Shown: one piece after another, positions 14,532 to 39,098 of the stretch
Position numbering within the stretch: the first letter of the stretch is position 1
How the letters are laid out: every line of letters starts with the position of its first letter
Assembly: GCA_043778625.1 (NCBI GenBank)
Contig: JAYWFU010000128.1
Coordinates: forward strand, 54,528-118,527
Direction: 5' to 3'
Source of the DNA: Bacteroidia bacterium
GTDB lineage: Bacteria; Bacteroidota; Bacteroidia; UBA4408
DNA: 64,000 bases
Position numbers and translations under genes: made by a program
Notes under the pieces: model-generated
Seen by the model: only the letters and a program-made list of their open reading frames with translations
Databases searched by the model: none
Told to the model about the DNA's origin: nothing

Positions 14532-15776
14532 TTACACTAACTGTTCAGCTTTAATACTTGTTTTGTTAAATTGGTCTTGTGCGTAAGCCAAGCTAACTTT
14601 ATAATCTTTAGTGCCTTTTTGCGAGGGTAGGGTGTACATTAAATCAGTTAAAATATTTTCGCAAATACCACGCAAACCACGTGCACCTAATTTGTTTTCC
14701 ATTGCTTTCTCCACTATAAAATCTAGTACTTCTTTATCAAACGAAAGCGCAATGCCATCAATGGCAAATAGTTTTACGTACTGTTTTATTATTGCATTTT
14801 TAGGCTCTAACAGTATTCGTTTTAATGCTACGGCATCTAGTTTATCTAAATTAGTAACACTAGGGAAACGCCCTACTAGCTCAGGTATTAAGCCAAACGA
14901 TTTTAAGTCTTGTGGCGATACGTACTGTAAAAAATTTTCTTTGTCGTACGCATCAGCGCTTGCGCTTGCTGAATAACCTACGCTTGCTGTATTTAATCGA
15001 TTGGATATTTTACGTTCGATACCATCAAAAGCACCACCCGCTACAAACAATATATTTTTGGTGTTAATTTGTATTAGTTTTTGCTCAGGGTGTTTGCGTC
15101 CGCCTTGTGGTGGCACGCCTACTACTGAGCCTTCCAATAGCTTTAATAAAGCTTGTTGCACACCTTCGCCCGACACATCACGGGTAATAGACGGGTTGTC
15201 GCTCTTGCGGGCAATTTTATCAATTTCATCTATAAACACAATGCCACGTTCAGCAGCTTTTTCGTCAAAATCAGCTGCTTGCAACAAGCGTGATAGTATG
15301 CTCTCCACATCTTCGCCCACATAGCCTGCCTCAGTAAGCACAGTGGCATCAGCTATAGCAAAGGGTACGTTAAGCATACGTGCAATAGTTTTGGCTAACA
15401 AAGTTTTGCCTGTACCTGTTTCGCCTACTAAAATTATATTCGATTTTTCAATCTCTACATCGTCATCGTCGCCTACGGTTTTAGTTTGATTTAAACGTTT
15501 GTAATGGTTGTACACCGCCACGCTCAATAAGCGTTTGGCACGATCTTGCCCTATTACGTATTCGTCCAGTTTCTCCTTAATTTCGGTAGGTTTTACTAAT
15601 TTAAGTGCATTAGCAGTAGCACCTTTCTTGGGTGGTTCCTCTTGCTTTACAATGTTATGGGCAGCTTCGGCGCACGAGTCGCATATATGACCCGTGCTAC
15701 CAGCTATCATTACCTTAACTTGTGAATTATCACGTCCACAAAAACTGCATTTAGTTTTTTTGTTGTCGGTGGCCAT
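14532..15776 (-). CDS. clpX: ATP-dependent Clp protease ATP-binding subunit ClpX
   Basis: CSFCG Zn finger, [37 protein letters not shown]. Confidence 0.98.
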
Positions 15777-16453
15777 TATTTTTTAACGCGTGTTAACACT
15801 TCGTCCACCATACCGTAAGCTTTTGCCTCTTCTGATGTCATCCAATAATCACGGTCGCTATCAGCCCACACTTTATCGTACGTTTGACCAGAGTGTAGTG
15901 CAATAATATCGTATAATTCTTTCTTTAATTTTTGAATTTCGCGGGCTGTAATTTCAATATCAGTAGCTTGCCCTTGTGCGCCACCTAGTGGTTGGTGTAT
16001 CATTACTCGAGAGTGTTTAAGTGCTGTACGCTTGCCCGCTTGCCCTGCACACATTAACACTGCGCCCATACTTGCGGCCATACCTGTACATATTGTAGCT
16101 ACATCAGCATTAATGTATTGCATGGTGTCGTATATGCCCAAACCTGCATATACACTGCCTCCTGGTGAGTTAATGTATATTTGAATATCTTTTTTGGCAT
16201 CAGTACTTTCTAAAAACAATAACTGCGCTTGCACAATGTTAGCTACGTAATCGTTAATGCCTGTACCCAAAAAAATAATTCTGTCCATCATCAAACGCGA
16301 AAACACGTCCATTGATGCTACGTTAAGCTGACGCTCCTCAATAATAGTGGGCGACATATAGTCGTTGTAAACCGATGCATAACTGTGTAACGATGCGCTA
16401 CTGATGCCTTTGTGTTTGGTGGCGTACTTGTAAAATTCGTCGTGTGTGTTCAT
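15776..16453 (-). CDS. clpP: ATP-dependent Clp protease proteolytic subunit
   Basis: DVFSRLMMDRIIFL, YINSPGGSV, AASMGA, MIHQP. Confidence 0.98.
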   Translation of the reverse strand: MNTHDEFYKYATKHKGISSASLHSYASVYNDYMSPTIIEERQLNVASMDVFSRLMMDRIIFLGTGINDYVANIVQAQLLFLESTDAKKDIQIYINSPGGSVYAGLGIYDTMQYINADVATICTGMAASMGAVLMCAGQAGKRTALKHSRVMIHQPLGGAQGQATDIEITAREIQKLKKELYDIIALHSGQTYDKVWADSDRDYWMTSEEAKAYGMVDEVLTRVKK

Positions 16454-25859: not shown

Positions 25860-28601
25860 CTACTCCTTCACTACCTTAAACGTTGTGCTTACGCCCTCCG
25901 CATTAGTAAGCTGCAATAAGTACATGCCCGTAGGATACTCGGCTATGCTTAGTTGGTTGTTAGTTACATGCCCTTGCTTGAGTAGTGCGCTGTGTAGGCT
26001 TTGCAATGTGTAGGTGTAAGTATCCCAATTAGGGTTATTAATGGTAAGTGTGCCGTTGGTGGGGTTGGGGTACACGTCTAGTTGGTCGTAGGTGTGTATG
26101 TGCGCAGGGGAAAATGGCTTGGCGGTAGTGGTTGTAGGACTTGGTGCACCACCTTTGGTGGCGGTGTTAGCCGTTGTTATGCCTGTAGTTGTACTCACGC
26201 TAGGCTGTGCTAACCTATGCCCACTATAAGCACTACCACAATTATTTATACGCATAGCTACCGTTGAACCTGCTTTAGCACTAAAGCCTGCGCCTAGCTT
26301 AACGTTACTACCCGCTACAAACTCCACGTGGCTTGCGGGCTGGCACACTACGGGTGCTACTGTAGCCACATTAACATTGTGGTAAGCTTGGTAGCTAAGT
26401 AAGTTGGGTTGCGTAAAGTTTTTATTATCTATGGCATAATCGTAGGTACAGCAAGGTGAGTTAATGTACTCACCGTAGTACACATCATCATGGGCAGTGC
26501 CGTAGCCTATACCACTTACATCGTTAAACGAATACAAAGTAGTGTTACTAATATTGTTAGTAGCATTAGCTTTCATTTGTGTGGCTTCGTAATTAGCATC
26601 GCTAACATCATAGGTTACGCGGTTCTCGCGGAACACGGTAGCTATATCGTCTCTATCGCAGCCTGTGGGTGTAGTATTAATTAACCAATTATAATACTCG
26701 TAAATGTTTTGACGCTCTAAATCTAAGGGGAGCGTACCATTTTTTACAGCAATAAAAAAATCAGCTATTTGCTTAAACGATAATGATACGTAATCAGTGC
26801 CTTTTGCATAACTGGATTTTGCACGAGTATTTATTTGAAGTAAATCAGTATCGTATTTATGTGGATAATTGAGATCATTATCGTTATAATCAGTAGTAGG
26901 TTTCCAACTGGGTATTTTATCAGCTCCATCGTATAAATCAAACAACGCACAAGCGATGTTGTACTCACTCCTAAAACCATTGTTTACCTGATTGTTGGGT
27001 TCAAGGCTAAATACTTTAGGGTTGCGTAACTCCAAGGGAGCGTCTTTAGTGTAATGCCCTGCGCCTGGTATCGATTTTGCCCAATCAAACTCGTTGTCCT
27101 CCTGCCAATATTCTAAGTCGCACATTTGTGCAAAGGCATATCCCCAGCCTTCTGTCCATACTTCGCGTGGTGTTTTTTCGTCTTGCCATGGGTGGTTGGC
27201 TACAGCCCCAGTGTGCGGATAACCACCTTGTAAGCGGTTCATTACATGATGCCCAAACTCGTGGTACACTACTGTTTTGCGGTGGGTGTCGTCAGTTTCT
27301 AAATAAATACGATAGCCAAATGCAGGATGTAACACTGGGTCGTAGTGCGATGATTGACCAAATACATTACTATTTATGTACACATTAACTGTAATGCCAT
27401 TAGGCATATCAACTGAAGAGTAGTGCTTACGCACAAACTTATAAGCATTGTGTATATAGTGCAATGTTACAAAGGGGGCTTTATCTACATAACTAATATT
27501 CCAGTCAACACCTGTTTTGAGACCATTGTTTTGTACACCCATTGCACTAAAAACAGTAGCATGTAAGTTATACAAAATATTATTAGTTTGGCTTGGCTTA
27601 ACAACAATGTCAAAGTCTCCGTTGTCGTCAGATACTAAACGAAGTATTAATTTACCTTGATTAAATATTTTTCGCACATCAAAATTATAGCTTAACGAGT
27701 AGTTGCCATCAGCATCAATTATTCCGCCTGCTTTTACATGTTTTATTCCGTATTGTATCCATACTAATTGTATATGTACGCCCGATAGTGGTGGATATAG
27801 GTTGTAAAAATTATCGTAATCGCTTGTTTTGTTAAATGTTACATAGCCCTGTATAGTACCTTGATAATTATTTTTTGCTAAAGCGGCACTACTTTTTTGC
27901 GAAGTAGTATTGTTTGTATAATTAACAGAATCTTGATCCATCAATGCTTGTAATTGTGCAGGTGTTCGGGCTTTCATTACTATACCATAAGGCATATTGG
28001 GCAGTTGTACTACGTATTCATTTTCGATTTCGTACACTGTTTTAGTAGTGTCAGTGTTAGGTAAACGTGTACTTACGGGTAGGCTATCTTTGGATATATA
28101 CACGCGTGTAGGCGCAACACCTGTAGTGGGTTGGTTCCATTGGCGAGGCAAGTTCAAGTAGTCGTATTTGTTCCAAAGTTCTATAGTATTGTAAGGGGTA
28201 AAAAACACCACTACCTGTGTAGCCTTAGTGTTACGTGCACCTTGTGCAGAGTGGCTATGCACAGTTACATCTATTTGATCAGGGTAGTAAGGCAAGTTAT
28301 TTACTGGGTAGTTTACACTTGTGGTAACCAAAGCACTATCGCCTACATATAGTACCGTTTTGTTGTAGCTAGCACTATTACTAGCATTAAACCCATTAGG
28401 GAGGTGAGTAAACGATAGCGAATCTAAGTAAGCGGTATCGCTAGTAAATACCTTAAACTGTAGTGTAAAACTCCCAGTAAGGCTAGTTATTTCCGTACTT
28501 GTAAAACCAAGTGCTATGTTGCTATAATTACCTGCGCCACACTGCTGGGCTTGTAGTTTTGTAGCAAAAAATAGTAAGGTTATAAATAATATTGTTTTCA
28601 T
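25860..28601 (-). CDS. T9SS type A-secreted putative zinc metalloprotease
   Basis: Signal peptide; YHEFGH (HEXXH) plus downstream TEGW; AGSNVKLGAGFSAKAGS (3-coathanger-stack-like); CTD VYPNPTNG...GMYLLQ...FKVVKE. Confidence 0.8.
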   Translation of the reverse strand: MKTILFITLLFFATKLQAQQCGAGNYSNIALGFTSTEITSLTGSFTLQFKVFTSDTAYLDSLSFTHLPNGFNASNSASYNKTVLYVGDSALVTTSVNYPVNNLPYYPDQIDVTVHSHSAQGARNTKATQVVVFFTPYNTIELWNKYDYLNLPRQWNQPTTGVAPTRVYISKDSLPVSTRLPNTDTTKTVYEIENEYVVQLPNMPYGIVMKARTPAQLQALMDQDSVNYTNNTTSQKSSAALAKNNYQGTIQGYVTFNKTSDYDNFYNLYPPLSGVHIQLVWIQYGIKHVKAGGIIDADGNYSLSYNFDVRKIFNQGKLILRLVSDDNGDFDIVVKPSQTNNILYNLHATVFSAMGVQNNGLKTGVDWNISYVDKAPFVTLHYIHNAYKFVRKHYSSVDMPNGITVNVYINSNVFGQSSHYDPVLHPAFGYRIYLETDDTHRKTVVYHEFGHHVMNRLQGGYPHTGAVANHPWQDEKTPREVWTEGWGYAFAQMCDLEYWQEDNEFDWAKSIPGAGHYTKDAPLELRNPKVFSLEPNNQVNNGFRSEYNIACALFDLYDGADKIPSWKPTTDYNDNDLNYPHKYDTDLLQINTRAKSSYAKGTDYVSLSFKQIADFFIAVKNGTLPLDLERQNIYEYYNWLINTTPTGCDRDDIATVFRENRVTYDVSDANYEATQMKANATNNISNTTLYSFNDVSGIGYGTAHDDVYYGEYINSPCCTYDYAIDNKNFTQPNLLSYQAYHNVNVATVAPVVCQPASHVEFVAGSNVKLGAGFSAKAGSTVAMRINNCGSAYSGHRLAQPSVSTTTGITTANTATKGGAPSPTTTTAKPFSPAHIHTYDQLDVYPNPTNGTLTINNPNWDTYTYTLQSLHSALLKQGHVTNNQLSIAEYPTGMYLLQLTNAEGVSTTFKVVKE

Positions 28602-28612
28602 AATTATGTTTT

Positions 28613-29266
28613 TTATTTAATAATGTTATGACGTAAGAGGTTCCATCTAACGTTTGCGGTATCTAAGTAACTTATTATTCCTATTCCTCTATTCATAACA
28701 ATTTCATAGCTGTGATCAAATACAATACTCGGTCTTGTGCGTTCTATAATACATTCAGTGTAATTTATATTGTCTATTTTGTAGTTATTGGTGTCTTTTA
28801 GACCTATATTAACCCACTTATCATCAGGGTAAAAAAAGCTAACACCGACTGTTTTACGTCCAGTTTGTAAGCCAAACCAATAATTATCTTTAGTATAGTT
28901 TTGCACACGGTTTAAATCTAAATTAATGTAGTACACTAGGTAAACTTTGTTGTGACATTCGTTGTATTTATTATTTAAAATTTCAACACTCATATTTTCA
29001 TAACATTGTTTTTGGTAACAGTTGCACCCACTTTTCTCAAGGCTTTCGGTGCCTATGTAGCTATTGCACACCCAGTGGCTGTCTGTAGCTAATGTAGTTT
29101 GGTTTTGGTACACCCAGTAAGTACCTGGTTTAAAATAAAAGTAGTCTTTAACCTTTTGTGCTATTTCAATACGGTTGCCCTTTCGGCAAGCTATGCGTTG
29201 CTTGCGGTTGGTGCAGTTGCTTAACAATAGGTAGATTAGTACTGTTAGGTATAGTATAGTTTTCAT
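28613..29266 (-). CDS. Cys-rich lipoprotein (paralog A)
   Basis: Lipobox LSNC; KDYFYFKPGTYWVYQNQTT motif shared with the neighbour. Confidence 0.8.
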   Translation of the reverse strand: MKTILYLTVLIYLLLSNCTNRKQRIACRKGNRIEIAQKVKDYFYFKPGTYWVYQNQTTLATDSHWVCNSYIGTESLEKSGCNCYQKQCYENMSVEILNNKYNECHNKVYLVYYINLDLNRVQNYTKDNYWFGLQTGRKTVGVSFFYPDDKWVNIGLKDTNNYKIDNINYTECIIERTRPSIVFDHSYEIVMNRGIGIISYLDTANVRWNLLRHNIIK

Positions 29267-29272
29267 GTTATG

Positions 29273-29938
29273 TTATTTTAAAATGTTTGACTTAATTAAA
29301 TTCCAGCGTGTGGAGTCGTTACTGTTTACGTAACTTATTATTCCCACATTTTTATTCATTATTACTTCTTTATAACGTCCGTAAATATTACCTAATGTGC
29401 GGCGTTGCACATTACACTCTATATAGTTTACACCGTTAATAATACAGTTAGCCGTGTCTTTATACCCATCTCCAAACCAAGTTCCATCCATTAAAAAAAC
29501 ATTTCCATAACCTTGATTAGTTAATGTAAAATAAAAATCAACTCCTAAATATTGTTTATACTCGTCTTGCACAGTTATAATGTAGCGCAAGTATTCATGT
29601 GTATTGCTACCATCGTTGCAGCCGTTGTACTTAGGGCTAAGTATGTTTACAAACATGTTTTCGAAACACATGTGGTTATAACAATTACAACCAACTTTAT
29701 CGTAGGTTACACTAGCTGTGCCTAGGTAGCTATCGCATACCCAGTGGCTGTCTACCTCAAGGGTAGTTTGGTTTTGGTACACCCAATACGTGCCATGTTT
29801 AAAATAAAAATAGTCTTTAACCGTTTGTGGTATGCGTACTTTTTTGTTATTGCGGCATAGTACCTCGTCGCGCACGGTGCAACTAACAATCGTTAGTTGT
29901 GTTAATAGTAGTACGATTAATTTTAGCAGGGGTTTCAT
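29273..29938 (-). CDS. Cys-rich lipoprotein (paralog B)
   Basis: Lipobox IVSC; KDYFYFKHGTYWVYQNQTT...DSHWVC...GCNCY. Confidence 0.8.
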   Translation of the reverse strand: MKPLLKLIVLLLTQLTIVSCTVRDEVLCRNNKKVRIPQTVKDYFYFKHGTYWVYQNQTTLEVDSHWVCDSYLGTASVTYDKVGCNCYNHMCFENMFVNILSPKYNGCNDGSNTHEYLRYIITVQDEYKQYLGVDFYFTLTNQGYGNVFLMDGTWFGDGYKDTANCIINGVNYIECNVQRRTLGNIYGRYKEVIMNKNVGIISYVNSNDSTRWNLIKSNILK

Positions 29939-29941
29939 AGC

Positions 29942-30655
29942 TTAGATACTTATAGTTAACGATAGCATCAAATTATTATAACGAGGGTTACGTGCCAAGT
30001 AGCCAGCTTTGCTATAGAAAGAGTTCTTGTGCTGAGTGAAGTAATTATGCTCTAAGCTTACTCCAAAGTTTTTAAAGGCATAACTTACTCCAACAATTGT
30101 TTTAAAGTAGCCTATCGGAAACCGCGTGTAAACATCAGTGTCATAAAATGAAAAACTATTAGTAGGTTTGTTTAATTGGTATTGCCATTGCAATGTTTTA
30201 TTTAACAATTGTTTTTCTTCAAGGCGCTGAATAAACACCCATATAGGCGCACCTCCAGCAAATAGTTGTAGATTACTGTGCTTACTAAATTGCGTAATTG
30301 TGTATTGTAAACGTATTGGCGCTTCTAAGGAATTATTTATAAGTACGTAATACACGTTTTTAACACTACCATTAGTTAGCGGAATAGTATACGTGTCAAA
30401 CAATAGCGTACGATAATAATAGCCTAAACCCGTTTGCAGGCTTAGTTTTTTACTTTTACGAAAATGTATGTTGTAATTAGCTTCCAGCCCAAACGACCGA
30501 AACGATTTTTTACCCAAAGCACTCCCTCCTATATAATGTGCCTTAAAACTCCAATTGTATTTGGTTAAAGAAGAATCTTTTTGCGCTACTACGTTATTAA
30601 AATTACCAAGCAACAAGTAACAACTTAATGTTGTTATAAATAATGTATGTTTCAT
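29942..30655 (-). CDS. Putative outer-membrane beta-barrel protein
   Basis: Signal peptide; amphipathic strands (LSLQTGLGYY, LEAPIRLQY, VGVSY). Confidence 0.6.
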   Translation of the reverse strand: MKHTLFITTLSCYLLLGNFNNVVAQKDSSLTKYNWSFKAHYIGGSALGKKSFRSFGLEANYNIHFRKSKKLSLQTGLGYYYRTLLFDTYTIPLTNGSVKNVYYVLINNSLEAPIRLQYTITQFSKHSNLQLFAGGAPIWVFIQRLEEKQLLNKTLQWQYQLNKPTNSFSFYDTDVYTRFPIGYFKTIVGVSYAFKNFGVSLEHNYFTQHKNSFYSKAGYLARNPRYNNLMLSLTISI

Positions 30656-30667
30656 AATAGTAAATTA

Positions 30668-32506
30668 TTAACGGTTTAATAATTTACTCTCAATGGCTTG
30701 TAACCGTTGTTGTAGTAAGTCGTTTTGTTTTTTAAGTTCAATAATATACAAGTACGCCTCTTCAATTTTTTCCATTTGTTTTACTTGCATGTCAGCAAGT
30801 TTTAACCCGTCTTTCTGTACCTCAGTAGCACTAGGTATATTGGGTAAATGTTTGTTGGCGGTTATGTAATTATCTAACTCCGCTATGGTTAATAGGTTGT
30901 AGTTTTTATCAAATACATAGTCGGGAAAGATTAAGTTTTGGGGCATTACGTTTATTTCGCGCGCATACACGTAACCATTGGCGCTTACTTTAAAATTTAT
31001 TTTACCACTAGCATCATACGTTTGTATAGTTGCTTTATTACTTGGGCTATACACATTAAGCATAGCATCGCCAAACTGCCCTGCGGGTATAGCACCTATG
31101 GCAGTAAGGCCATCGCCCATTACTCTAAACGTGTAGTCGTAAGCGCCTGTAGGTTTGGTATTACTTACGATTAATGCAGTGGTACGGTCGCGCGTTACAT
31201 TTATTTGCGCAGCAGTTAACCAATCTTGTGTGTGGTTAGTGCTAACATTAAGCCCTTGATAATCCACATCGCCCTTAACATTAAGCGCACAAGCTAACGA
31301 TTGTGGGTACGGGAAACCTATCTCTACGTTTTTGCCCATGCTTACCTTTCCGCCATTAGCACCAGTATTAATTTGTGTATTGCTACCACAAAAATAATTA
31401 ATAAATAATTCGTTGGGGGTGTTGCCTCCAACACTAGCATCAATACCAGAGTTACCATTGGTAAACGATTGCATATTTAACAAGCCTGTGTTAGGCTTAG
31501 GGGCTCCAGTAGCATCGACATCAAATATTTGTACCCACCCACCAAACTGATGCCCAAAAGGAGCAAATGGCGTAGCTGCGCATGCAGGGGGCAGGGGCAA
31601 CAAAATATTGCTACCTATGTTGCGCCCGTAGTTAAACACGCCACCACCTGTGGTGGCGGTGGGCGTATAGCTTATGCCTATGTTAGCGGTGTTAAACGCT
31701 ATGCCTTGCACGGCACGCAGAGATTTAGTAAATGTTGCCGTATTATTAAATTCAGTTATTGTATTAAAACTAACTGGCGAGTTAAAATAGGCATTGTTAT
31801 TAACGTTAATACTGCCATTAACAGTAGTTGCACCATTAAGTTGTGTTGCACCACGTAACACGGTACTGTTTTGTACATCTAAGTCGTTATCTACCTTAAA
31901 ATCTAAGCCTTTAATTAAGGTGGCTGCCTGCACCTTGTCAGTAATAATAACTCCGCCACCCACGTATAGGTTGTTGCTTATACGAGCATCGCCAATAACA
32001 TCGAGTTTAAAAAACGGACTAGGTTGTGCGCCTATGCCCACATTGCCAGTGGGCTTGTACACATCGGCAGGATTATTAGCCGTTAGCCATGCCGTATTAG
32101 TAGCAGGTAGGGTTTGCCATGTGCCGTTACCTGCTAAGTACTGTGTGGCTAGGCCTGTAAAACTATAGCGTTCTATTTTGCCTTGCCCATTAGTTAGTAC
32201 CAAGCCATTAAGGGTGGTGCTGTTGAGGTCGAATGATTTTATAACCATTTCGCCATTGGGCTTTAGGCGCAATGCTTCGGCGTTGTTGGTTTTAAGTAAA
32301 ATGGTTGGTTGTTGGTAGTGCCTAGCCAATCGCCACTGTTGGCACTGGTACCGTTACGGTTCCAAGGGGCATTGGTTTGCGCAGTAGCAGTTAGTGCTGT
32401 GCTTAGCAAGGCGCACATGGTTATGCTCGCTATTGCATTAGCAACACTATGTGTTGTGTTGTGTTGTGTTGTGGCTAACCAACACGGGGATGTAATTGTT
32501 TTTCAT
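30668..32506 (-). pseudogene. Phage tail-fibre-like secreted protein, frameshifted at the 5' end
   Basis: Main ORF 30668-32329 has GNVGIG motifs and a C-terminal PDYVF...KHLPNIPSA.EV...EKIEE.YLY coiled-coil module. The N-terminus (ATG 32506; signal peptide ...TALTATAQ; WNRNG...DWLGTTNNQP) lies in other frames, broken at the (AACAC)4 tract and at about 32301. Confidence 0.75.
32450..32473. repeat. Pentanucleotide simple sequence repeat (GTGTT)4 / (AACAC)4
   Basis: Read directly from the sequence; begins about 36 nt after ATG 32506 on the - strand. Confidence 0.9.
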
Positions 32507-32680
32507 AGCTAATTGTTTTTATAGATTAACCAATAGTAACAAATAAAAATGGGATTATCAATTAAAAATGCCTAATGAAACATTAAAGCTAAAATTTGAT
32601 AATGTTGCATTTATTAATTGAATCCTCCCCACTTAAGTAAATACGCTGTTTTTTTTAATAGCTAGTGTAGTTATTGTTTT

Positions 32681-33665
32681 ATGTATGTCCGCAAATAATC
32701 ATAATCCTGTAATTGCAGCAATAACAAGCCTGTCAAAGAGTTTCTCCTCAAAATATCTTCGATTCAGTTTGTAAACAAACTCGTTAAGGTATAATTGTAA
32801 GTACTTACCCTTTATTTTGTGGTAGTTCCCTAATAAATTTCGTTTAGCATTACTTATGGTAATGTGTACCCACTTTAGTACCTTTTTGGTAGTTTCTTTG
32901 TCTGATTTTTCAGTAAAGTGTAACTCTACATAGTCTGCTATATTTACGTAAGAGGTACTTTTGTCGCTAAAAACTATACTTTTTTCACTAATAGATTCTT
33001 TTATAGTCCCGTTTATTTCAGTTGCACTGTGGCTAGTTAATACCTTTGCTTTAAAATATCTACATTGGTTAGACACCTTTCCGGTTTCAATATCCTCCAA
33101 AGGGGTTGATTCTGCTAGTATTGCGACATTTTGCTTGCCTACCGCTCCACGCCCTCTAACGCCTTTGCTTTTTTCTATTTCGCTAGACTCAATGGTAAAA
33201 TACCCCTCGTCCATTTCAATCATTCCTTCTAAAGTGTAGCGTGCATCACGCTTGCCCATTGCCTTGCGGAGCTTGTGAACCATAGCCCACACAGGTTTCG
33301 TAGCGTTTTAAACCTAATTGTTTTTGTATTTCCTTACTCGAAAACCCTTTTTTAGTCGCACTGAGTAAAAACATAGTTTTATACCATACTAAAAAAGGTA
33401 AGTTAGAACTCTGCATAATTGTTCCGCTACGCAAAGAAGTACGACTTCTGCATATTTTGCACTCGTAACTCAACCTACTTTTTATCCAATAATGTGTAGT
33501 ATTACCACAGTTACAAACTATACCCATAGTGTCTCGTTCGCCCTTGAAATGGGCTATGCAGGCTTCTTCGCTCTCAAAATTTGCTGTAAAATTAAATAAA
33601 TTCATACCGTTTTTTTCTGCTAAGATAACTAAAAATATCAATTATGGGTATTTGCGGACATGCAT
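32681..33665 (-). mobile_element. IS1595-family insertion sequence, 985 bp
   Basis: TIRs ATGTATGTCCGCAAATAATCATAAT (32681-32705) and the reverse complement of 33641-33665 (22/25 match); direct repeat TTATTGTTTT at 32671-32680 and 33666-33675. Confidence 0.93.
32699..33605 (-). pseudogene. IS1595-family transposase, split by a +1 frameshift
   Basis: N-terminal Zn ribbon (CNC...CKIC, SLRSGTIM) and DDE part (IEMDEGYF, SDKS, YLNEFVYKLNRR) are in different frames; removing one A from GAAACC near 33296 gives KRYEPVWAMVHKLR. Confidence 0.88.
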
Positions 33666-37040: not shown

Positions 37041-39098
37041 ATGAAAACAATGAAAGCAATCAAAATAATTATATTGTTTTTATTGTTTGGTATAGCAAAC
37101 GTTAATGCCCAAAATAATGTAGGTATAGGTACAACTACACCTAATGCTAAAGCTGTACTGGAGCTACAAGCTATTGATAAAGGTTTTTTGGCACCACGCA
37201 TGAGTGCCGTGCAAATGAACGCTATAACAACACCACCTAATGGCTTGCTAGTGTACAACACTACTGTTAATTGTTTTAATTACTGGAATAGTGTTACCAC
37301 AACTTGGGTAAATATGTGTGCAAGCACTGGCACTACTGGAGTAAGCAATAGCGGCGATACTGTAATTATTAATTTATTAAAAGTAGATAGTGCATTTATT
37401 ACCAACTTGTTTGCCACATACATAAAGGCTGACAGTGCGTTTATTAAAAATATAATTAGTAATTATATTAAAACGGATAGTGCTTTTATTCACTTACTGC
37501 GTAGCGATACTGCTTACATTAAAACATTAATAACCAATACTATTAACGCGCACTACATTGTAACTGATAGCATTAATGCTGGTTTTGGACGCTTTGATAG
37601 CATATATGTAAACGGACAAAACTTACAACAATACATAAGCACATTATTAAGTAATAAAGACACGGTGGTGTTAAAATACCTGCAAACTGATAGCATACAA
37701 ACCTTACTAATAAAGGCAGATAGTGCCTACATTAAAAACTTACTGGCTAATACAATTACTGCTACGTTTATAATTACTGATAGTATTAAAGCAGCCTTTG
37801 GGCGTTTTGATAGTTTGTATGTTGGGGGTAAAAACATATTACAAACAATTAGCGACAGTATTAAAGCACAAGCATGGTTGCTAAAGGGCAACACTGCTAC
37901 TACAACTAATTATTTGGGTACAAACAATGCGCAAGATTTAGTGTTTAAAACCAACGGGGTTGAAAACATGCGCATACTCAATACAAACGGTAATGTAGGT
38001 ATTGGTACCACTACACCTGCATTTAGGTTGCACGTACCTGCAGGTTACATAGGTACTGATTACATCAACACTACCGATAACTCCGTTAACACAGGGGTTA
38101 CAGGCATTATGATAAAAGCTGGCGATAATTTTTTGCGTACAGGTACAGCAGCCGCTATTAATTCTTTTTTAGGAATAACAGCACCAGGCGGCGATAACTT
38201 AGGCAACCATTTTGCAACAACTACATTAAATATGAATGCTAACTTTATTACTAACGCACAAGGTAGCTCAACATTTGCACAAAGTAATAATACCTCTACT
38301 TCATTTGTTGATGCCCCTATACAATTACGTGAGGCACAGTTTGGTGGGGCAGGGTTTATAGCTCCTCGCCTAAGTTTTCATTGGGCAGGTGTGGTAGCTT
38401 CGCAAATAGGCATAGAAGCCAGCGGGCGAATAGCCATACGTAATAACCCAGGTACAGGCTACGAAAACTTTGTGGCCAACGAAACCTATGCCAATGGCTG
38501 GTTTAGAAACATAAACTCAAATACAGGTTTGTATAACGAAACTAATTTTACTGGAATATACTCGCCAAGTGTAGGGGTTATGGCTATTTTTAACAATGGT
38601 GTATTAGGCATTAAAACAATTACGCCCACTGCCGACCTTGATGTAAACGGTACAGTACGTGTACAAAGCCTACCTGCAGGCGCTAATAACGAAAGCATAG
38701 TAACCGTTGATGGTGCAGGAAACTTACACAAAAAACCAGCAGGCTTTGGAGGTGCTATCTATGTAGGGACTTTTTATTCGGGTAACACAGGAGCTCCACC
38801 AGCTTCGCCGCCTGTTAGTGGCTATTTTACATCAGCTTCAGCTTATAATTATAGTTGTGCTCCCGTTTGTAGAGATGTTGTTACAGTTAATTTTCCAGCT
38901 TTACCTAATACAAATTACGTCGTAATCTGCACTCCCGTTTGCAATACTTGCACCACAGATTTCGCTGCAGATTTTTCAAATGAAATACGTACACCATTAA
39001 TTTATCAAAAAACTACTACTAGTTTTAAATTAATGGTTGAAGAGACTGGCAACGCTACACAAGACTTAACATGGGATATTGTTATTATTAATTATTAA
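37041..39098 (+). CDS. Phage tail-fibre-like secreted protein with a D(S/T)x repeat block
   Basis: Signal peptide; NVGIGTTTP twice; KGFLAPRM...GLLVYNT; WLLKGN...LGTNNAQDLVFKTN; duplicated repeat block; fibre-tip-like C-terminus. Confidence 0.75.
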   Translation: MKTMKAIKIIILFLLFGIANVNAQNNVGIGTTTPNAKAVLELQAIDKGFLAPRMSAVQMNAITTPPNGLLVYNTTVNCFNYWNSVTTTWVNMCASTGTTGVSNSGDTVIINLLKVDSAFITNLFATYIKADSAFIKNIISNYIKTDSAFIHLLRSDTAYIKTLITNTINAHYIVTDSINAGFGRFDSIYVNGQNLQQYISTLLSNKDTVVLKYLQTDSIQTLLIKADSAYIKNLLANTITATFIITDSIKAAFGRFDSLYVGGKNILQTISDSIKAQAWLLKGNTATTTNYLGTNNAQDLVFKTNGVENMRILNTNGNVGIGTTTPAFRLHVPAGYIGTDYINTTDNSVNTGVTGIMIKAGDNFLRTGTAAAINSFLGITAPGGDNLGNHFATTTLNMNANFITNAQGSSTFAQSNNTSTSFVDAPIQLREAQFGGAGFIAPRLSFHWAGVVASQIGIEASGRIAIRNNPGTGYENFVANETYANGWFRNINSNTGLYNETNFTGIYSPSVGVMAIFNNGVLGIKTITPTADLDVNGTVRVQSLPAGANNESIVTVDGAGNLHKKPAGFGGAIYVGTFYSGNTGAPPASPPVSGYFTSASAYNYSCAPVCRDVVTVNFPALPNTNYVVICTPVCNTCTTDFAADFSNEIRTPLIYQKTTTSFKLMVEETGNATQDLTWDIVIINY

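Follow-up and report, generated by a model that had tools for sequence, protein, structure and literature searches.

The described systems that come closest to the genes treated here are the potempin operons of Tannerella forsythia (PMC9890683). Potempins are lipobox lipoproteins of 98-132 residues, encoded at most 5 bp upstream of peptidases exported by the secretion system of type IX (T9SS) and co-transcribed with them; they are anchored in the outer membrane, and the enzyme encoded downstream is specifically inhibited and stably bound. Their partners are the KLIKK peptidases, whose C-terminal domain (CTD) ends in the residues K-L-I-K-K, and which include forsilysin, a thermolysin-type enzyme of family M4 that has PotE as its lipoprotein partner. 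Paralogous potempins occur (PotB1/PotB2), potempins share only 4-14% identity among themselves, and the authors mention an orphan lipoprotein beside a thermolysin-like protease (PMC9890683). Our subject is a run of five minus-strand genes (25860-32506) in a 64,000-nucleotide stretch of a Bacteroidia genome (contig JAYWFU010000128.1; hereafter the window), which encode a fibre-like protein, a candidate outer-membrane barrel, two lipoproteins and a zinc metalloprotease predicted to be exported by the T9SS. A preliminary description, made from the letters of the window, had proposed either a dedicated five-gene surface system or a secreted protease with cognate lipoprotein inhibitors. We find that the conserved core of the group consists of the lipoproteins and the protease.

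This becomes apparent when the protease is followed into other genomes. The protease family, taken over residues 26-690, is present in 9 of the 301 genomes of a class sample, and in eight of these nine, genes of the lipoprotein family (recognised with a profile from alignment A5) stand immediately upstream on the same strand. Their number varies, with three copies in G267, two in G207, G050 and the genome of the window (G000), one in G032, G271 and G293, and a fragment at a contig end in G056. It is thus the second of the two proposals, a secreted protease with cognate lipoprotein partners, that the gene linkage bears out. The expectation that the genes would occur together elsewhere holds for this pair but not for the fibre gene, which is found upstream of the pair in none of the three other genomes with visible upstream DNA (L132, L134 and L005). 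In G050 (L134:8122-10683) two lipoprotein genes alternate with two short pieces of a protease N-terminus, and the full protease of 1736 residues is encoded downstream of them; they look like remnants of a tandem duplication of the pair.

The protease consists of a signal peptide, a beta-sandwich (residues 26-137), the catalytic domain (approximately residues 251-663), a threonine-rich linker and a type A CTD. The CTD scores 35.4 bits with TIGR04183 (cut-off 23) and 33.4 bits with PF18962 (cut-off 27), and the protein has both features of a type A T9SS cargo, namely a CTD above the curated cut-off and an N-terminal signal peptide. Outside the CTD no Pfam or NCBIfam model matches it, and Peptidase_M4, Peptidase_M4_C and M36 give no match at E<=0.01. 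The HEXXH motif noted in the preliminary description is HEFGH at residues 447-451 (nt 27249-27263); an alignment of 34 sequences shows no variation at H447, G450 and E484 and next to none at E448, H451 and H470. An AlphaFold2 model of residues 1-740 has a predicted local distance difference test score (pLDDT) of 71.8 and a predicted template modelling score of 0.78. VIA-align placed this model on thermolysin (Z 18.9, 273 residues aligned, root mean square deviation 4.0), M36 fungalysin (Z 18.3) and LasB (Z 15.5), and Foldseek returned aureolysin and thermolysin at probability 1.00. Judged by the model, the protein is a divergent thermolysin-fold gluzincin that lacks the FTP propeptide and has an N-terminal beta-sandwich instead. 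An exhaustive search gave 380 cluster representatives at E<=1e-3, of which 157 at E<=1e-10, and no family name for them. The representatives share residues 25-690 or thereabouts and are mostly 900-1750 residues long, and relatives of the protease in other genomes likewise end in a T9SS CTD (Por_Secre_tail).

The two lipoproteins are paralogues, as had been proposed, with 46% identity. Their lipoboxes were read from the sequence, that of lipoprotein 1 as ...IVSC and that of lipoprotein 2 as ...LSNC, which is atypical at position -1. The close subfamily (alignment A2) has seven invariant cysteines and counts five members in an index of 5.8 billion proteins, two of which are the window's own. A metagenome scan seeded with this subfamily returned only three loci, distant and solitary, and a pattern scan of all species genomes gave 24 loci with distant relatives, in two of which (L007 and L015, the latter being G032) a protease homologue adjoins the lipoprotein; in L007 the lipoprotein gene stands upstream of it, as in the window. 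A lipoprotein (P0003) and a fibre protein (P0010) are each listed with a JGI contig of 17,864 bp as the longest. The AlphaFold2 model of lipoprotein 2 (pLDDT 81.3) has an all-beta, barrel-like fold.

A paralogous cluster on contig C108 of the same genome provides a second view of the partnership. Its order is a fibre of 710 residues, two lipoproteins of 146 and 139 residues and a T9SS protease of family M4, and it has no barrel gene. The fibre is 58-72% identical to that of the window, and the last 180 or so residues of the two proteases, CTD included, are 52% identical. The C108 lipoproteins, 68% identical to each other, belong to a family unrelated to the window lipoproteins, and the protease is made up of FTP, Peptidase_M4, Peptidase_M4_C and Por_Secre_tail domains. 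By these comparisons the catalytic domain and the lipoproteins were swapped together between the clusters, in the manner of a cassette, and the fibre and the tail stayed, as would be expected of cognate partners. Convergent to the C108 protease gene lies the gene of a bacterial alpha-2-macroglobulin of 1835 residues with a lipoprotein signal (L048:1648-7155 on the plus strand, the same as G000:C108:21648-27155). Alpha-2-macroglobulin is a broad protease trap.

On balance we lean towards reading the five genes as a composite of two recurrent units, not as a five-part machine, with the lipoproteins acting as cognate inhibitors of the protease. Unit A would be formed by the lipoprotein genes (28613-29938) and the gene of the divergent thermolysin-fold protease (25860-28601), presumably co-transcribed, and Unit B (29942-32506) by the PDYVF-type fibre gene, named after a C-terminal motif, and the small outer-membrane barrel. 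The protease would rely on Sec to cross the inner membrane and on type IX secretion, via its type A CTD, to cross the outer one, and the lipoproteins, as membrane-anchored inhibitors, would bind it during export or on the surface of the cell. Inhibition of this kind would protect the envelope of the producer, as potempins do for KLIKK peptidases.

Several observations weigh against the lipoproteins being dedicated inhibitors. In roughly half of the 24 loci found from the lipoprotein, its gene stands by itself among housekeeping genes, and because many copies stand alone, the family is not restricted to protease partners. Genome G222 has the protease and no detectable lipoprotein, and the C108-type lipoproteins adjoin no HEXXH protein or protease in 12 of 12 other loci, judged on flanks of 1.5 kb. 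The model of lipoprotein 2 has no clear solved relative (best fold-search Z 6.4; nothing with Foldseek at E<=1e-3) and there is no potempin among its top 50 fold matches. A profile search of the PDB with the lipoprotein family gave nothing either, and its sequences have no detectable relation to the potempins. The window lipoproteins are also longer, at about 200 residues compared with the 98-132 given for potempins (PMC9890683). A prediction of the complex between residues 26-675 of the protease and mature lipoprotein 2, made with alignments, scored 0.01, which speaks neither for nor against binding.

The layout of the locus agrees with the preliminary description in most respects. The five open reading frames (ORFs) are co-directional on the minus strand, and their spacers of 12, 3, 6 and 11 nt lie within the 3-12 nt given there. 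Export signals had been assigned to all five products, which stands for four of them but not for the fibre, where the signal-peptide-like stretch is out of frame. The coordinates are collected in Table 1.

Table 1. Features of the five-gene run and its upstream flank, in window positions.
Feature	Position	Strand	Basis or remark
PDYVF-type fibre gene, broken	30668..32506	-	ATG 32506 main frame; 32263-32502 +1 frame; long ORF 30668-32329 main frame
C-terminal PDYVF module, 110 aa	30668..31000	-	alignment A6
Frameshift site, one A missing	32297..32298	-	alignment A3 against the paralogue
CACAA x4 + CACAT x1 repeat	32449..32473	-	read from the sequence
Small outer-membrane beta-barrel candidate, 237 aa	29942..30655	-	signal peptide ending ...VVAQ; ESM Atlas
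Lipoprotein 1, 221 aa	29273..29938	-	lipobox ...IVSC; YFYFKHGTYWVY motif
Lipoprotein 2, 217 aa	28613..29266	-	lipobox ...LSNC; protease gene 11 nt downstream
Predicted T9SS-exported zinc metalloprotease, 913 aa	25860..28601	-	fold model and CTD family models
Predicted thermolysin-fold catalytic domain, aa 251-663	26613..27851	-	fold comparison, conserved columns
Type A T9SS C-terminal sorting domain, aa 843-913	25860..26075	-	PF18962, TIGR04183
IS1595-family element	32681..33665	-	25-nt terminal inverted repeats; Pfam

The genome (3.24 Mb in 152 contigs, 96.9% complete) encodes the T9SS translocon SprA/Sov and has 114 T9SS CTD matches. The G+C content of the cluster, 0.36-0.40, is the same as that of the remainder of the window. 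The lipoprotein-protease pair was not found in 24 genomes of the same family. Two genomes of the same genus carry orthologues of the flanking genes, 86-88% and 63-65% identical, with other neighbours, and all five cluster genes are absent there. By this comparison the cluster is accessory and sits at a synteny break beside an insertion sequence (IS). There are no phage structural genes nearby, as had been stated: the 34 neighbouring ORFs compared, from 9.8 to 51 kb, include none. Only the ClpP gene at 15776-16453 (minus strand), beside ClpX and trigger factor, matches PHROG families named 'head maturation protease' (E 1.9e-46), a misleading match that does not make it a phage gene. At 37041-39098 (plus strand) lies a gene for a signal-peptide protein of 685 residues that opens with an NNVGIG motif, as the fibres do, and has no Pfam match; the two same-genus genomes lack it at that place, and their genes for proteins of 1033 and 177 residues adjoin there. 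A scan for promoters and terminators gave counts equal to those in shuffled sequence, Bacteroidota promoters being outside the coverage of the scan.

The fibre gene had been taken as one open frame from position 32506, and this has to be corrected. The frame that opens with the ATG at 32506 runs into a stop after 19 codons. It is the +1 frame, at 32263-32502 and out of frame with that ATG, that encodes the signal-peptide-like stretch and conserved N-terminus (...AIASITMCALLSTALTATAQTNAPWNRNGTSANSGDWLGTTNNQPFYLK), and the long ORF (30668-32329; 553 residues, counted from a TTG at 32329) shares the frame of the ATG and resumes after a 1-nt deletion at 32297/32298. The intact paralogue on C108 (P0007, 710 residues) reads through uninterrupted (...GDWLGTTNSQPFILKTNNAEALRLKPNG...). 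In DNA alignment A3 the window has CCATTT-TACTTAAAACC where the paralogue has CCATTTATACTTAAAACC, the window being one A short. Contigs identical to the window over 32189-32339 are present in X1, X2 and X3, three biofilm-metagenome runs of one study that may themselves be the source of the assembly. Variant contigs, listed for X2 and X3, have one extra base and five substitutions, consistent with the C108 paralogue; an in-frame allele at this site was considered and rejected, as they carry the extra base of the paralogue and several of its substitutions. Because the contigs of three runs match the window and the variants fit the paralogue, the lesion is real in the population. The fibre gene is a frameshifted pseudogene with a 1-nt deletion relative to its intact paralogue.

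Between the ATG and the signal-peptide-like stretch there are four copies of CACAA followed by CACAT (32449-32473), which encode H, N, T or Q in all frames. This pentanucleotide repeat resembles a slipped-strand switch and has the same length in contigs of two runs. Phase variation was considered here and rejected: contigs of X1 and X3 span the repeat without a difference, and the X2 contig merely starts at 32481. In the intact fibres at L048:10366-12498 (minus strand) and L006:9081-10277 (plus strand) an N-terminal region of up to about 60 residues precedes the signal-peptide cleavage site, which is reminiscent of the extended signal peptides of autotransporters.

The IS1595 element, upstream of the fibre gene, is 985 bp long and 174 bp away from the ATG, with 25-nt inverted repeats at 32681-32705 and 33641-33665. 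Its transposase is split into two overlapping ORFs that match DDE_Tnp_IS1595 and Zn_ribbon_IS1595 in Pfam, and this copy may be defective. Loose contig ends mark its edges at 32678/32685 and 33665, coverage is higher than elsewhere, and the contigs of other copies show a 1-nt indel at 33296. Because of the raised depth and the differing contigs, the element is taken to be multi-copy. With the fibre gene frameshifted and the IS1595 element just upstream, only Unit A is likely to be functional in this genome.

The fibre protein of Unit B belongs to a family of at least 434 members, the listed ones being 'hypothetical protein' or unnamed apart from one JGI label, bactofilin. It has no match in Pfam, NCBIfam, PHROGs (0 families) or the PDB sequences. 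Its C-terminal module contains, in this order, the motifs FPDYVF, KHLPNIPS and EKIEEL and then a helical tail of 30-40 residues, and alignment A6 of 25 modules has D32, V34, F35, H56, L57, P58, E85 and E86 as invariant positions. The module is present in 160 of the 301 class genomes, among them the unpublished G200 and G116, and a single genome can have as many as 14 copies. The description of the protein as phage-fibre-like is not supported: PHROGs contains no family for it, and tblastn found no match to the module in any of 50,697 phage records. In the viral collection IMG/VR a single contig matched the module, and this contig (L117:2975-6315), classed viral, carries two tandem PDYVF fibre genes. 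A C-terminal chaperone of the Peptidase_S74 kind and a YadA-type trimeric autotransporter find no support either: there is no match in Pfam or NCBIfam, and S74 reached only 0.83 in the ESM Atlas, which is chance level. The 30 nearest Atlas clusters are all without a Pfam family, and a profile search of the PDB sequences with the module found nothing. Of the coiled-coil module that had been proposed, the motifs are present (FPDYVF...HLPNIPS...MEKIEE), but the coiled coil is unconfirmed: a crude heptad test of the tail gave 0.71 against 0.62 +/- 0.09 in shuffles, which is not significant.

In Bacteroidia, fibre genes are commonly the first genes of T9SS cargo clusters. From each of 20 genomes we took the 15 kb that surround the best match to the module, and compared 76 neighbour proteins with Pfam. 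In 13 of the 20 loci a protein with a Por_Secre_tail or CHU_C domain is encoded within three co-directional genes downstream of the fibre, and a fourteenth candidate (L097) has an ambiguous internal CTD match. The same holds for four of the five fibre loci of G000, where CTD cargo lies downstream. The rate expected by chance is roughly 0.1 per locus, estimated from 114 CTDs in 3.24 Mb with no formal control. The cargo is varied and includes an M4 protease (L116), PGAP1-like esterases (L105), proteins of families GH16 (L111) and GH5 (L112) and a PKD protein (L110). Three loci (L098:973-7719, L103:3411-7696 and, in the genome of the window itself, L049:935-8337) have the order fibre, a protein of 140-154 residues that is nearly all CTD, a giant with SpvB, TcdB_midN, FG-GAP and RHS domains, and small ORFs. 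At L113:1104-7625 a SpvB/TcdB_midN/RHS giant follows the fibre directly, with no CTD-only protein between. The giants of these four loci are 1285-2313 residues long, and the order may represent a T9SS-linked Rhs toxin arrangement. Small aromatic-rich proteins with a signal peptide come directly after the fibre in L099 (PF13568), L100, L107 and L110, and have no detectable similarity to each other.

Given this linkage, the PDYVF fibres could be a very widespread, undescribed T9SS accessory that heads cargo cassettes, in a role analogous to that of VgrG: the module would anchor or present a fibre that carries, displays or aims a variable cargo, namely proteases with lipoprotein inhibitors or immunity proteins, esterases, glycosidases or Rhs/Tc-like toxins, and the window would hold a decayed copy. 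We regard this broader proposal as unlikely. In the preliminary description no characterised system of this composition was known. That still applies to the fibre, for a literature search found no paper on PDYVF fibres or on their link to T9SS cargo, full-text search being weak for an unnamed family; it does not apply to the lipoproteins and the protease, for which the potempin/KLIKK operons are a precedent (PMC9890683).

The lipoproteins might also be cargo-specific helpers of the protease, that is chaperones in the periplasm or at the surface, anchors that retain the protease on the cell, or folding partners that replace the missing FTP/PepSY propeptide. The window protease does lack the FTP propeptide that its M4 paralogue on C108 has, the model of lipoprotein 2 weakly resembles carriers of the LolA, ependymin and YmcC-like kinds (Z 4-6), and the tight adjacency would suit any obligate partner. 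However, the C108 protease has its own FTP propeptide and yet two lipoproteins upstream, and the fold matches are at chance level. In addition, the only characterised precedent for the layout is one of inhibition, and PotA is reported not to contribute to the secretion or maturation of prokarilysin (heading of section 2.6, PMC9890683). We therefore think a helper role improbable.

A similarly low probability goes to an interbacterial weapon, in which the protease would be sent by the T9SS against the envelopes of competitors, the lipoproteins would be immunity proteins, and solitary homologues, of which there are many, would be orphan immunity genes. The distribution is sporadic enough for this (none of 24 same-family genomes has the pair, and 9 of 301 have the protease), and the synteny break with its flanking IS, the copy number of one to three lipoproteins and the duplication remnants in G050 would all fit, as would the fibre-headed clusters in which SpvB/TcdB/RHS giants are followed by small genes. 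Against it, nothing points to bacteria as the target of the protease, proteases exported by the T9SS usually serve nutrition or are directed at a host, and the immunity-like genes lie upstream, whereas in classical polymorphic toxin loci they lie downstream.

The dedicated five-gene surface system of the preliminary description, with a trimeric fibre anchored by the barrel, matured by the protease and accompanied by accessory lipoproteins, is the least probable and can hardly be upheld: the second G000 cluster does combine a fibre, two lipoproteins and a T9SS metalloprotease, a row in G028 consists of a lipoprotein, a 176-residue protein, a fibre, a barrel (PF13568) and a large secreted protein, and four loci have the small aromatic-rich protein after the fibre, but the pair has no fibre upstream in the three other loci where this can be seen, C108 lacks the barrel, no similarity could be detected among the barrel-like proteins, the cargo behind fibres ranges from glycosidases to Rhs/Tc-like giants, and the fibre of the window is frameshifted with its four downstream genes intact.

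If the lipoproteins do inhibit the protease, as in the composite of two units that we favour, potempin-like self-protection would be a general design of T9SS proteases in environmental Bacteroidia and not the peculiarity of one oral pathogen. The design would here be built from two unnamed families, and these could provide new specific protein inhibitors of thermolysin-type enzymes. Widespread, genetically tied to T9SS cargo and with no handle that we found in Pfam, the PDB or the literature, the PDYVF module offers a concrete and testable clue to the deployment of this cargo.

Comparison with known families and systems places each part of the locus. With M4 and M36 peptidases (clan MA(E)) the protease model shares the two-lobed fold over about 270-290 aligned residues and the HEXXH motif with a downstream invariant glutamate; it differs from them in sequence (about 11% identity), in the lack of a Pfam match and in the N-terminal beta-sandwich in place of FTP/PepSY. 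The 237-residue protein, a candidate for the proposed beta-barrel, falls among OMP_b-brl_2 (PF13568) clusters in the ESM Atlas (features 0.96; structural template modelling score, TM, 0.71). It resembles the small PF13568 barrels of Bacteroidota in size, signal peptide, aromatic-rich composition and Atlas TM, but the Pfam model itself fails to match it even at E<=1; the protein has no paralogue in G000. VgrG heads effector/immunity cassettes of the type VI secretion system. The fibre clusters are alike in that a conserved fibre- or spike-like gene precedes variable effectors and small partner genes, Rhs giants included, and unlike in that their cargoes end in T9SS CTDs, a signal peptide is all that the fibre has for export and there is no homology.

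For the pair of lipoproteins and protease, the closest precedent is the potempin/KLIKK operons, and within these forsilysin with PotE (PMC9890683). The differences are that the window protease ends in ...TTFKVVKE and not in KLIKK, that no sequence relation is detectable and no prodomain was detected in the window protease, and that the pair belongs to a Bacteroidia genome from an environmental biofilm and not to an oral pathogen. The likenesses are lipobox lipoproteins encoded on the same strand as a T9SS peptidase and directly upstream of it, at spacers of 6 and 11 nt, a pair of paralogues among them, an all-beta lipoprotein model, and a thermolysin-type catalytic domain joined to a T9SS CTD. 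By this analogy the window pair, which we do not file as a member of the potempin system, would work like a potempin pair.

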